64,000 nucleotides of DNA from positions 800,001-864,000 of the forward strand of contig CM000431.1 of the NCBI GenBank assembly GCA_000165345.1, written 5' to 3'. Positions 25,970-28,900 of this stretch are shown one piece after another. The position numbers and the translations under genes are program-made. Positions within the stretch are counted from its first letter, which is position 1. Every line of letters begins with the position of its first letter. The notes under the pieces are model-generated. The model did no database searches. It was given only the letters and a program-made list of their open reading frames with translations, and was not told where the DNA came from.

Positions 25970-28900
25970 TTAATTGATATTTACTGAAGAGGAAAGTTTT
26001 TTGAATGTTTCCTCAGTCGGAGGTAAATTATTCTCTATGCAAAAATGGTAAAGTTTGCGTAATAGCTGGGCAGTATGAGAAATTGCTTGGAATTGTTTCT
26101 CTACGCCTCTAATTGAAAGAAGGCCTAAAACACTCATTCTCATGTGTTTCCCCATTGCCCTTCCAATACGATGCCTATTTAGTGCAAAAATTGTTGGAAT
26201 ATTTAATTCCTGAGCCTGTAAAAGAATATGTATTACATGGTGTCTAAGGCTTCCTTCTACTCCATCTCCCTCGATATCTGGAGCAACAATTAGAGCCTTT
26301 AGTTTTTTGTGTCTTAAGCATCTCATTGCTTCTCTAACTCCAACAGTGAATACTCTTCCTGGGAAGTTCTTTGTAGAGTTTGATAGGTTTGGGTTTGATT
26401 CATTGGTGCCTTCCTCAATACCGCCTAAAGCGTTCCCAGTATTCGAAATAGAAATAGCACTTCCATTAACAGTGATTGTATAGCCAGTTTCAATAGTGTT
26501 TTTGGAGTCAGAGATCTTCTGATTAGAGTCACCTTCTGAAGGAATAACACATGAATTACTAATTTTGTTTGACTTGAGATCAATCTGCAAGCCACTTCCA
26601 TTTTTACTATTAACAACAGTAGACATCCATCGAACGCGATCATCAATAGCTCTTAAAGTGTTTAATAGGATAGAGACGCTATGATCTAATGATGCCGTAA
26701 GTATCTGATTTACATAGTTTTGTGGTGACGCAACAGTTCTATGGCCAACTTTATGAGCAACAGCAAGTCTGATATTTTTATGTACAAAAGCTCCATTTTC
26801 TGGTTCTGACCAGTACGCACATTCAGATGGGTCAAATGATCTTGAAACAGCTTCTAGTGCGATATCATCTACTGCAACCATACAAAGATTATCGCCTTTA
26901 TTAACTTCACGAATTTTTCTGGCATCCACAGTATCTAAATAATGGTACATAACTCTAAGCCAATGAAGTCTACCAGAGTTATTCCTTAAAAATGATGAGA
27001 ATCTAGCGCATGTAATAATTTCATTGGCTCCATTCTTAGAATCAGTCAAATTTGAAGAGCCAGAGTTTGTGCCATTGTTATTCACGTCTGTATTACTTGA
27101 AGCAGAATTTGAGTTGCTGTGTTTGTTTCTATTGCTAAATCCGGTTCTACCGCCAGTCTTGCTCATTGCCTTTGCCCATAAAGCAGCAATTGAAGAGGGT
27201 GTAAGCCCATTTTGAGATGCGTCATTGCCAGAAGTATCAATAGAAGAGGCACTTAAACCACCAGCACAGGAGCTACTTCCAGCCGGAAAGTTGTTATGAA
27301 TGTTCATATTACCAAATCCTGCCATACCGCCTGTCATGTTTGAGTTACACGAATGAGAAGCATTGCTATTATTCTTGATATGATTAATGGCATTCTTCCG
27401 GCCATTCTTATTATAATAAGCATCCTCAGAAGTTTTTTTAGAGTAACCCTGATTGCTTAGACCAGAAATAGGAATATTGGACATACCAGAATAAGCCAAA
27501 TCATTCAGAGATCTTGAAACCCCATTACCAATCACTCCCATAGAACCACCACCAACACCCAATCCCAATTGATTTCCATTAAATGGAATAACTCCTGAGC
27601 CAGATTTCCTCCTAAACATATTTCCATTAATATGAGTAGGAATTGTACAATTGGGAGGGCAAGTCTTCCTACAGTACTGTAGTTGCCCTTGGTTAACCCC
27701 AACATATCCCTGATCATTCAGATTCTGAATGTTTAAACCAGAATTTAAAGGAATATTTGGCATGCTACCAGTTAAGCTACCACTGCTATTTTTCTTACCG
27801 GAACGGCTCGTATGACGTAACATATTAGATTCGCATCTAAGCATGTTGTTTTCATTATATAATATAGGTAAATTTCCACTTCGGTAAGTATTCGGTGCTC
27901 TTTGATTTGCTTCGAAATTCCCTAGATTCGGAGAAACACCATTACGCTGTTTCAACTGTTTTTGCTGTTTGTTACTCATATTAGAAGGAAATCCATATAA
28001 TTTCTGTTGGCCAAAATACTTGTGTCTAAGCTGTTGGCCACGGTTAATTAAATAATTATTATAGGGAACGTCACAGCCAAAGTCATCATTAAACTCATTC
28101 TTTTCAAAAATAGAAAGTTGTTGATGTTGCGGTTTCCAGTCAATAACTCCTTGGGAAGAAGAAAATTTGTATGGAGATGTATGTTGCCAATATGATTTTC
28201 CATCACCTCTAAATTCAACCTCGTCAATTCCCTGTAAAGAGCCTTCCATTCTGTAACCATTGCTGTCGTCCATCAATCTATTAAACATATTTTGGAATTG
28301 ACTTCCATTGCCGTCCATCTCAAATGGGCCTCCAATATCGCTGTTACTGAGAGCTGGATGAGACGAATGTCTACTCTCTATCCCATTAATGGAATCTCCG
28401 TATGAGATATAATTTCCTTTAATAGAAGGCGAAGTATCAATTCCACTTCTGCACATGTAATCAGTATTTGCAGATCCAGATCTTGATTTAAAACTACTAA
28501 CCAAACCTTCCGTCTGGTTATTCATGACACCCAATAATTGTGAATTGGATGATCCAAGTAATGCAAAGTGTCCTATTGAGGGATATATATCTTCTTCATC
28601 AATTATTAAAGGATTGGCTCCATTAGAACTAAAATTAGAATGAATAAGAGAATTACTTTTAGATGACCTTTTCATTCCATATGCGCCGCTGCTATTATTA
28701 CCTGCTAAACTGCAAGTGCTCCCTCCAACCCCAGTGCTACAACTACTACTCCCACTGCTACAGACGCTACCTCCAATGGCTCTCCTCCCTGATGCATTTA
28801 TACTTCCCATTATTGATGTGGGGTTTGATAAATTGGATGTAGAACCACTACTTTTTCTGAATCTTAGTTTCCCATTTGAATTAATTTCAGAAACAGAGTC

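Follow-up and report, generated by a model that had tools for sequence, protein, structure and literature searches.

Why should a parasite reported to make no selenoproteins encode a domain resembling the RNA-binding core of SECIS-binding protein 2 (SBP2)? Proteins of the SBP2 family are usually taken as markers of selenocysteine (Sec) use. The domain lies at the end of a long open reading frame within the window analysed here, 64 kb of Cryptosporidium parvum chromosome 3, where two adjoining open reading frames match C. parvum proteins exactly; the initial annotation, made from the letters alone, had guessed at a Cryptosporidium-like genome. It had also stated that the lineage is reported to lack selenoproteins and the Sec machinery, and the literature agrees: C. 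parvum is listed with zero selenoproteins and without Sec insertion machinery (PMC2375036, PMC6254913, PMC7409322). This Sec-free status rests on a 2007 survey and on reviews. Within the 64-kb window, taken from a genome of 9 Mb, we found no tRNA-Sec, SECIS element, eEFSec, PSTK, SepSecS or SPS2.

Results

The frame encodes a 1445-residue protein rich in Asn (13.1%), Ser (14.4%) and Gly (9.6%), which together make up 37% of the residues, with poly-Asn runs at aa 39-43 and aa 189-200 (Table 1). N+S+G reaches 40.5% in aa 1-1030, where a Pfam scan of the whole protein found no domain, and the N-terminal ~1000 aa are probably disordered. The initial annotation concerned positions 25970-26420, which correspond to aa 1296-1445 and the stop codon. 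In the AF2 model, aa 1432-1441 of the C-terminal tail (model residues 402-411) are helical. Our literature search found no paper on this Cryptosporidium gene, and 'cgd3_3340', our guess at its locus tag, gave no match. The gene is unmentioned in the excerpts of PMC2375036 and PMC7409322 that deal with Cryptosporidium.

Table 1. Features of the 1445-aa reading frame, with positions counted in the window
Feature	Position	Strand	Residues	Remarks
Whole open reading frame	25970..30307	(-)	1-1445 + stop	ATG start; genus-conserved Cryptosporidium gene; from the ORF listing
N-terminal region	27218..30307	(-)	1-1030	N/S/G-rich, low complexity, fast-evolving
Helix motif TPSSIAALWAKAMSKTGGR	27146..27202	(-)	1036-1054	Short; near-invariant in 7 orthologues
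Conserved segment TCARFSSFLRNNSGRLHWLRVMYHYLDTV	26927..27016	(-)	1098-1127	Cryptosporidium-specific; near-invariant across the genus
Class A signature block DDIALEAVSRSFDPSECAYWSEPE	26798..26869	(-)	1147-1170	28-aa HMM, 22.9 bits
AHKVGHR block and long pre-L7Ae helix NYVNQILTASLDHSVSILLNTLRAIDDRVRW	26615..26761	(-)	1183-1231	AIDDR replaces RFQDR
Variable low-complexity insert	26372..26614	(-)	1232-1312	Between helix and L7Ae module; Cryptosporidium only
Predicted SBP2-type L7Ae kink-turn-binding module	26018..26371	(-)	1313-1430	Pfam, phmmer, Foldseek
C-terminal tail and stop codon	25970..26017	(-)	1431-1445 + stop	'TFKKLS' part-conserved among orthologues

The sole Pfam match of the full protein is PF01248 (Ribosomal_L7Ae) at aa 1320-1395 (E 4.9e-07, 29.8 bits, gathering cut-off 22.1 bits), and the same family matches the C-terminal 196 aa alone with E 2.2e-08 and 34.1 bits. 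Among PDB sequences searched with phmmer, human SBP2 (7zjw_B) aligns over 109 aa with no gaps (E 1.5e-13, 54 bits), as against archaeal L7Ae at E 0.38, Snu13/15.5K at E 0.57 and eL8 at E 0.95; L7Ae and Snu13 score about 13 bits, and no Nhp2 or L30e chain appears at E<=10. Structure comparison gives the same order. The top Foldseek match of the AF2 model is SBP2 (7zjx_B, E 7.4e-08) over 232 columns that reach into the helix preceding the module, and Snu13 and L7Ae rank after it with about 100 columns each. The module is modelled with pLDDT about 90, and the AF2 model and Foldseek confirm the superfamily fold. The claim that the last ~130 aa carry an L7Ae domain of SBP2 type, closer to SBP2 than to L30e, Nhp2 or Snu13, is thus confirmed.

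Residues G1323, R1325, E1326, R1329, R1378, G1382 and L1396 align with human SBP2 G676, R678, E679, K682, R731, G735 and I749, so that the predicted RNA-contact positions of the module are kept. L7Ae-family structures point to E679, K682 and R731 as contact residues, and PMC2746813 names G676 as the motif's universally conserved Gly. K682 is replaced by Arg (R1329) in C. parvum, and the G, E and R contact positions are invariant in alignments A1-A3.

The functional unit extends over about 400 aa (aa 1036-1430) rather than 130 aa. The initial annotation had described a ~130-aa domain hanging on a ~1300-aa low-complexity region; the poly-Asn runs and an N/S/G-rich N-terminus hold for ~1000 aa, and the remainder has to be redrawn. 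For comparison we defined class A, a set of about 30 marine protist transcriptome proteins, and class B, 64 canonical SBP2s. The region begins with the TPSSIAALWAKAMSKTGGR motif, predicted to be helical (pLDDT about 60), which aligns in alignment A3 with 'MTxSGLAKKWxSAL' of class A relatives. The TCARFSSFLRNNSGRLHWLRVMYHYLDTV segment that follows has no counterpart in any relative of class A or class B in alignment A3, and the AF2 model does not fold it with confidence. An extended RNA-binding domain is present, made up of the AHKVGHR block, equivalent to 624-IHSRRFR-630 of human SBP2, and the NYVNQILTASLDHSVSILLNTL helix, modelled with pLDDT 79-90; we follow PMC2673426 and PMC2746813 in defining the extended-RBD block and the RFQDR motif. 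The insert between helix and module varies in length, is only 37-48% identical between species and has pLDDT below 50.

Homology of the upstream region is visible only with profiles; the 123 aa upstream have no match in the PDB when searched alone. An HMM of the class A upstream region, trained without Cryptosporidium, matches C. parvum aa 1156-1231 from model positions 4 to 79 (E 5e-16, 52 bits), whereas canonical SBP2s match it only from positions ~15-45 onward, with at most 34 bits.

The initial annotation had proposed looking for orthologues in sister species, and at least seven Cryptosporidium species carry the gene: C. parvum, C. felis, C. bovis, C. xiaoi, C. muris, C. andersoni and C. 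serpentis. Synteny holds at the C. felis locus, where PheRS and a hypothetical gene of 954 aa are the neighbours. The C. parvum L7Ae module is 99% identical to that of C. felis and 80% to that of C. muris, and between C. parvum and C. muris the C-terminal blocks are 80-99% identical, against 24% for the N-terminus; in the orthologue alignment only 0-15% of positions per 40-aa block of the N-terminal region are invariant. Relative to C. felis, the L7Ae module has a pN of 0.015 and the upstream domain one of 0.054, against 0.283 for the N-terminal 1030 aa and 0.336 for the insert (0.28-0.37 outside the conserved domains). Synonymous sites are saturated between the two species (pS 0.70-0.86), so we give pN and pS and no dN/dS ratio. 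Purifying selection on the L7Ae module is strong.

The C. bovis/C. xiaoi orthologue already bears the database name "SECIS binding ... domain containing". The resemblance to SBP2 is therefore not new; what is new here is the placement of the Cryptosporidium protein within a subfamily.

Two features tied to Sec insertion are absent. Human SBP2 requires its K-rich domain to bind SECIS and the 60S subunit (PMC2673426), and its K-rich/SID core motif spans K517-R543 (...KKPTSLKKIILKER...). An HMM of this core, built from 35 canonical proteins, matches 50 of the 64 class B SBP2s and none of the seven Cryptosporidium orthologues, although the cut-off was as loose as E<=10 and the filters were disabled. 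Sec incorporation also needs the RFQDR motif (PMC2746813), and at this site (human 654-658) all seven orthologues have AIDDR, in which the D and R alone are kept. Caution comes from Caenorhabditis elegans, whose SBP2 is without SID yet essential for Sec insertion (PMC4114682), so that a missing K-rich core is no proof of lost SECIS function. Two further motifs were sought. The Cryptosporidium proteins begin MENLL... or MSDRK... and lack the acylation-like MGxxC start, and neither the C. parvum protein nor its C. muris orthologue (P0017) has a PAM2 motif, for which class A P0065 has a sub-threshold match.

The Cryptosporidium proteins share with class A the upstream motifs DDIxxE...AYWSE and AHKxGxR, extra motifs found in no canonical SBP2 among the matches listed. 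The signature, DDIxxE...D.S..AYWS[ED], precedes the YVxQ helix by about 35 aa. A 28-aa HMM of it, built from 30 class A proteins and none from Cryptosporidium, reaches 22-27 bits in 7/7 orthologues, in the position expected, and matches 0/64 canonical SBP2s; the best of 2000 shuffles reaches 5.7 bits. In a neighbour-joining tree of 156 columns covering the helix and L7Ae module, a bipartition uniting Cryptosporidium with class A occurs in 77/100 bootstraps, and the sister group of Cryptosporidium is purely class A in 93/100. The L7Ae core alone separates the classes little, the class A minus class B HMM score being +2.3 to +3.9 bits for Cryptosporidium. An ordinary SBP2 left over from the loss of Sec does not fit a protein that groups with class A and has neither the K-rich/SID core nor RFQDR. 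On this evidence, and as part of the explanation favoured below, the Cryptosporidium protein probably falls on an SBP2-family branch of its own kind, class A, separate from canonical SBP2.

The makeup and origin of class A bear on this placement. A K-rich core is present in the class A or A-like proteins P0027, P0055, P0072, P0064 and P0091, and class A may thus include Sec-competent SBP2s. Canonical SBP2 occurs in the dinoflagellates Gambierdiscus australes (P0023) and Noctiluca scintillans (P0044). Contig L009, which encodes class A P0170, starts with a spliced-leader-like 'CTCAAG', the same as Noctiluca contig L010, and class B contig L014 starts 'GCTCAAG'. Other class A contigs start 'GCCATTTCAAG', 'TTCAAG' or 'CTACAAG' and run on into a conserved 5'UTR, and given these varied starts the shared 'CAAG' may itself be UTR sequence. 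Class A is probably dinozoan as well. Among the contigs looked up, no sample contained both class A and class B, and we found no single organism with both.

Discussion

So, what does an SBP2-like protein do in Cryptosporidium? Most likely, it is a kink-turn RNA binder that acts independently of selenocysteine. The explanation that we favour as a whole, and hold to be reasonably probable, is that it is a class A member of the SBP2 family that binds kink-turns, lacks the K-rich core and RFQDR, and has no dependence on Sec. The absence of those two features argues for a role other than Sec insertion, which the initial annotation had raised and which seems the best reading. Strong purifying selection on a separate SBP2 branch, in a host reported to be selenoprotein-free, suggests that the module probably binds other kinked RNAs.

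In the mechanism we propose, the working part would be the C-terminal ~400 aa, an SBP2-family RNA-binding region composed of the short helix motif, the DDIxxE...AYWSE block, the AHKVGHR block, the long helix and the L7Ae module. The module would clamp a kink-turn, or an element resembling one, in at least one cellular RNA; candidates are untranslated regions of mRNAs and structured non-coding RNAs. The ~1000-aa disordered, N/S/G-rich N-terminus may serve in RNP assembly or partner recruitment. Selenocysteine would have no part in this mechanism.

A rival history, which we regard as possible though rather unlikely, is that class A represents nothing more than the SBP2 of the alveolate lineage concerned, that Cryptosporidium inherited it as its single Sec-related SBP2, and that the protein outlived the rest of the Sec pathway because of a second job, already present or then acquired, with the K-rich core lost later. 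The K-rich cores in P0027, P0055, P0072, P0064 and P0091 are consistent with such repurposing, as are the homology of the AHKxGxR block and helix to the canonical IHSRRFR block and helix (PMC2673426), the nearly equal fit of the L7Ae core to both class profiles and the failure to find both classes in one organism. However, named dinoflagellates have clearly canonical SBP2, the 'CTCAAG' end of L009, as in the Noctiluca contig, suggests that both classes occur within Dinozoa, and the tree splits the classes in 77/100 bootstraps. Far less credible is an ordinary SBP2 serving Cryptosporidium selenoproteins and Sec machinery that earlier surveys missed. An intact and strongly selected SBP2-type module, the C. 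elegans SBP2 that works without SID (PMC4114682) and the age of the surveys (PMC2375036, 2007) would allow for it, but three sources report selenoproteins and machinery to be absent (PMC2375036, PMC6254913, PMC7409322), the K-rich core is missing and RFQDR replaced, and the 64-kb window, a small share of the 9-Mb genome, holds neither tRNA-Sec nor SECIS; we consider this very improbable.

Two further readings are already refuted. That the protein is a generic L7Ae-family member, an Nhp2, Snu13 or L30e paralogue with a superficial likeness to SBP2, might be read from Pfam, which gives only the general PF01248 family, but the 54 bits for SBP2 against about 13 for L7Ae and Snu13, the want of any Nhp2 or L30e chain at E<=10 and the SBP2-specific helix and block ahead of the module leave this next to no probability, and C. 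parvum has a separate, orthodox NHP2 (PDB 2aif). The least credible of all is a decaying, functionless relic: the reported Sec-free status of the host lineage and the highly variable N-terminus would be expected of one, but the frame of 1445 codons is intact, orthologues span the genus in at least seven species, and pN in the module is 0.015 where synonymous sites are saturated.

A broader possibility, which we offer tentatively, is that the SBP2-type regions of alveolates fall into two or more ancient paralogous lines, and that the class A line is Sec-independent, acts on kink-turn RNAs and was kept after the Sec pathway was lost. Should this two-line history be true, Cryptosporidium would be a natural Sec-free system giving direct access to the targets, other than SECIS, of a protein of the SBP2 family. 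The parasite can be manipulated genetically, which would allow the RNA target to be identified by CLIP on a tagged protein. A conserved SBP2-family RNA-binding region with no K-rich core, in a genus reported to be Sec-free, suggests that a Sec-independent RNA target is possible, and in selenoproteome surveys "SBP2 present" should not be scored from the L7Ae module alone. The class A signature offers a simple means of separating such proteins from true SBP2 in alveolate genomes.

L7Ae, Snu13 (15.5K), Nhp2 and L30e share with the protein the alpha-beta-alpha sandwich fold and the motif GxxExx[KR] that recognises kink-turns, but each consists of a single domain of ~120 aa and has no upstream helix of the SBP2 type, and their sequence similarity is marginal (E about 0.4-1). 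Human SECISBP2 (7zjw/7zjx) is much closer, sharing the ungapped 109-aa L7Ae alignment, the contact residues, the long helix and a block of IHSRRFR type. Unlike it, the Cryptosporidium protein has no K-rich/SID core, has AIDDR for RFQDR, carries an ~80-aa low-complexity insert between helix and module, adds the AYWSE block, a W motif and a conserved segment confined to the genus, and occurs in a host reported to be selenoprotein-free. SECISBP2L, the vertebrate paralogue and the sole SBP in some invertebrates, is an SBP2-family protein whose role is not simply Sec insertion (PMC3328465, PMC2746813) and so sets a precedent for paralogues of diverged function; however, it keeps SID and RFQDR, has no class A signature motifs, and is reported absent where organisms have no selenoproteins (PMC2746813). 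C. elegans SBP2, which consists of the RNA-binding domain only, likewise lacks the SID/K-rich region (PMC4114682), but is a minimal protein of 153 aa from a Sec-using animal and has neither a long disordered N-terminus nor class A motifs.

The dinoflagellate proteins P0023 and P0044 are alveolate members of the SBP2 family and, at 36-41% identity to C. parvum, the closest canonical ones in the L7Ae region among the matches listed; they differ in having an N-terminal K-rich core (GKQRLVSKKKxxSxLKxVILEER), RFQER and no AYWSE block. Class A proteins (for example P0021, P0027, P0046, P0065 and P0176) are 340-560 aa long, have the acylation-signal-like MGxxC start and possess neither the giant N/S/G-rich N-terminus nor the insert, but they share with Cryptosporidium the DDIxxE...AYWSE block, AHKxGxR, the YVxQ helix and the W motif.

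Genomic context

The window comes from Cryptosporidium parvum chromosome 3 and is AT-rich (GC about 28-38%); two ORFs exactly identical to C. parvum proteins bear out the Cryptosporidium-like genome considered in the initial annotation. That annotation also described a low-complexity region with poly-Asn runs, and N, S and G indeed make up 37% of the 1445-aa protein, with runs at aa 39-43 and 189-200. Its sole Pfam match is PF01248 (L7Ae/L30e/S12e/Gadd45) at aa 1320-1395, over the gathering score. The sequence has no exact copy in a collection of 15 billion proteins, where both neighbouring proteins have one; strain differences in low-complexity repeats, or another annotated start, are the likely cause. 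The locus is syntenic in C. felis, with PheRS and the diphthamide gene again nearby. At window positions 963-1036, on both strands, weak miRNA-family matches (~28 bits, far below gathering scores of 81-90) probably reflect an AT-rich palindromic or simple repeat.

Features of the window discussed in the text
Feature	Position	Strand	Remark
Protein kinase	5371-10017	-	Neighbour, housekeeping
tRNA-Gly (anticodon TCC)	19428-19500	-	Sole RNA gene that ARAGORN and Rfam detect in the window
C. parvum phenylalanyl-tRNA synthetase (PheRS)	19628-21157	-	Exact protein match
C. parvum hypothetical protein	21729-24620	+	Exact protein match
SBP2-like gene, 1445 aa	25970-30307	-	One unbroken ORF; L7Ae domain encoded at 3' end
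30-aa segment TCARFSSFLRNNSGRLHWLRVMYHYLDTV	26927-27016	-	Nearly invariant in all Cryptosporidium orthologues
Diphthamide synthesis protein	33446-35101	+	Neighbour, housekeeping
DEAD-box helicase	42273-44258	+	Neighbour, housekeeping
RPAP1-like protein	44337-48053	-	Neighbour, housekeeping
Hsp70	61731-63782	-	Neighbour, housekeeping

Conservation and selection

An exhaustive phmmer search with aa 1296-1445 over 1.84 billion cluster representatives gave 622 matches at E<=1e-3. The three best clusters are all from Cryptosporidium (C. felis; C. bovis/xiaoi; C. muris/andersoni/serpentis), and the next match is only 44% identical. In the database, the entries for C. bovis and C. xiaoi carry the name "SECIS binding pelota RNA binding domain containing", and those for the remaining orthologues "ribosomal protein L7Ae domain-containing protein". 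A word-indexed protein search missed Cryptosporidium orthologues that are present as cluster representatives, and its negatives are unreliable for queries rich in low complexity.

Among seven orthologues, the N-terminal 1030 aa have nearly no invariant positions (24% identity between C. parvum and C. muris), and a variable low-complexity insert (aa 1232-1312) separates the helix from the L7Ae module. Three C-terminal blocks (aa 1036-1054, 1098-1231 and 1315-1430) are 80-99% identical across the Cryptosporidium orthologues. In the comparison of C. parvum with C. felis, synonymous change has reached saturation (pS 0.70-0.86); the non-synonymous proportion ranges from 0.015 for the L7Ae module and 0.054 for the upstream domain to 0.28 for the N-terminus and 0.34 for the insert. 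Purifying selection acts strongly on the C-terminal region.

Short genus-conserved islands, such as 'IYPxxxHF' and 'QQxRxxxxxQ', lie within the variable N-terminus at aa 574-581, 724-732 and 758-767 (about nt 28565-28588, 28112-28138 and 28007-28036) and may be short linear motifs. The TCARFSSFLRNNSGRLHWLRVMYHYLDTV segment occurs in none of the other SBP2 relatives compared and is not confidently folded by AlphaFold2 (AF2).

An SBP2-type L7Ae module

The C-terminal domain is of the SBP2 type, as the initial annotation held in preference to L30e, Nhp2 or Snu13. Against all PDB sequences, phmmer aligned human SBP2 (7zjw_B) over 109 residues without gaps (E 1.5e-13), whereas archaeal L7Ae, Snu13/15.5K and eL8 reached only E 0.4-1 and Nhp2 and L30e chains gave no match at E<=10; none of the competing families thus scored better. 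In an AF2 model of aa 1031-1445 (input alignment of 22 sequences), a long helix (aa 1205-1233) and the L7Ae module (aa 1316-1442) have pLDDT of about 80-95, and the rest is disordered. The top Foldseek match in the PDB is ribosome-bound SBP2 (7zjx_B; E 7.4e-08, 232 columns), aligned over both helix and module, followed by Snu13 and L7Ae at about 100 columns each.

In the ungapped alignment, human G676, R678, E679, K682, R731, G735 and I749 correspond to C. parvum G1323, R1325, E1326, R1329, R1378, G1382 and L1396; all but the first we take to be kink-turn contacts. [quoted passage not shown]

Two classes of SBP2 relatives

Upstream of the L7Ae module, the best matches show two mutually exclusive patterns. 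Among the matches listed, 64 proteins are canonical (class B), with RFQ[DE]R and usually a K-rich core; 30 others, together with the seven Cryptosporidium proteins, form class A, with the order DDIxxE...D.S..AYWS[ED], AH[KR]xGxR, YVxQxL...R[LF]xD[RQ].

Four sequence-based tests place the Cryptosporidium protein in class A. An HMM of the class A upstream region, with Cryptosporidium left out of its training set, aligns model positions 4-79 with C. parvum aa 1156-1231 (52 bits, E 5e-16); in canonical proteins it covers the helix part only (from model positions ~15-45, <=34 bits). A 28-aa class A block HMM scores 22-27 bits at the expected place in 7/7 Cryptosporidium orthologues, matches 0/64 class B proteins and reaches at best 5.7 bits on 2000 shuffled versions of the C. 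parvum sequence. The short C. parvum motif TPSSIAALWAKAMSKTGG aligns with class A MTxSGLAKKWxSAL. Finally, a neighbour-joining tree of the helix and L7Ae module (156 columns, class-defining block left out) separates Cryptosporidium plus class A from class B in 77/100 bootstraps, and in 93/100 Cryptosporidium has a sister group made up of class A alone. On the L7Ae core alone, class A exceeds class B by only 2.3 to 3.9 bits for Cryptosporidium.

Class A sequences come from ~1.2-1.8-kb transcripts of JGI metatranscriptomes, MMETSP cultures and Logan assemblies. The canonical matches closest to Cryptosporidium are dinoflagellate (P0023, Gambierdiscus australes; P0044, Noctiluca scintillans), and class B contigs L010 ('CTCAAG') and L014 ('GCTCAAG') open with the terminal 3' bases of the spliced leader of dinoflagellates. 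Because class A contig L009 also starts 'CTCAAG' and other class A contigs have similar but not exact ends ahead of a conserved 5'UTR, class A is probably dinozoan; the two classes would then be paralogues within one phylum.

Class A transcripts from different samples (L002-L009, L011, L016-L021, first 40 nt) share the 5'UTR start CAAG|TGT(C/T)(A/G)..CCTCT(T)CAGGAA; Illumina adapter (GACGTGTGCTCTTCCGATCT) remains at the 5' ends of three Logan contigs, L016-L018. Most class A proteins (P0022, P0027, P0046, P0065, P0070, P0113 and others) begin MGxxC(S), which looks like an N-myristoylation and palmitoylation (dual-acylation) signal and would imply a membrane-tethered L7Ae-type RNA binder; such a start is missing from the Cryptosporidium proteins and from the canonical SBP2s of dinoflagellates. 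A PABP-binding PAM2 motif lies in the upstream frame of a canonical dinoflagellate SBP2 contig (L014:69-716, +; 27.9 bits, Pfam cut-off 20), with 'LNADAPAFVP'-type PAM2-like sequences in P0044, P0019, P0196 and P0197 and similar, sub-threshold ones in class A. On the 2.6-kb metatranscriptome contig L012, a 467-aa ORF (2-1405) without a Pfam match precedes class A ORF P0190 (1402-2508), overlapping it by 4 nt, an arrangement that could reflect a chimera, a polycistronic transcript or a longer protein split by a frameshift.

Function and origin

So, is selenocysteine (Sec) involved? Published sources count 0 selenoproteins in C. parvum and no Sec insertion machinery: the survey of Lobanov et al. 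(PMC2375036), and derived tables and reviews (PMC6254913, PMC7409322). The 64-kb window holds no SECIS or tRNA-Sec match, and its neighbouring genes include no Sec machinery. Overlooked Sec usage in Cryptosporidium is unlikely. We favour, with some confidence, a putative binder of kink-turn RNAs that would act independently of Sec and belongs to a separate branch of the SBP2 family; its disordered N-terminus would probably serve RNP assembly. In the main alternative, which is less likely, class A would be the lineage's own SBP2, repurposed by Cryptosporidium after Sec loss; it differs from the favoured reading in history only. A generic L7Ae protein is ruled out by the PDB search, the class A upstream HMM and Foldseek, and a dead relic by the strong purifying selection on the C-terminal region.

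That the domain resembles SBP2 is on record already through the C. bovis and C. xiaoi protein names; we found no paper that discusses the C. parvum gene. What appears to be new is the class A signature, the lack of the K-rich core, the measured strength of selection and a placement separate from canonical alveolate SBP2.

Comparison with known SBP2 proteins

Donovan and Copeland stated that organisms without selenoproteins have no SBP2L (PMC2746813), which makes the C. parvum gene notable. In human SBP2, the K-rich/SID core motif lies at K517-R543, and binding to SECIS and to the 60S subunit depends on the K-rich domain (PMC2673426). A K-rich core HMM trained on 35 canonical proteins from the matches detects 50/64 canonical proteins; with filters off and a limit of E<=10 it still detects 0/7 Cryptosporidium orthologues. 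The core survives in a few class A or A-like proteins, so its loss is limited to a part of class A that includes Cryptosporidium. C. elegans SBP2 counsels caution here: it has no SID, yet is essential to Sec insertion (PMC4114682). The canonical RNA-binding domain (aa 623-784) carries a conserved block, 624-IHSRRFR-630 (PMC2673426, PMC2746813), and RFQDR (654-658), on which Sec incorporation depends but SECIS and ribosome binding do not (PMC2746813). The Cryptosporidium protein is not an orthodox SBP2: it retains the IHSRRFR-type block (as AHKVGHR) and the helix, whereas all seven orthologues have AIDDR in place of RFQDR.
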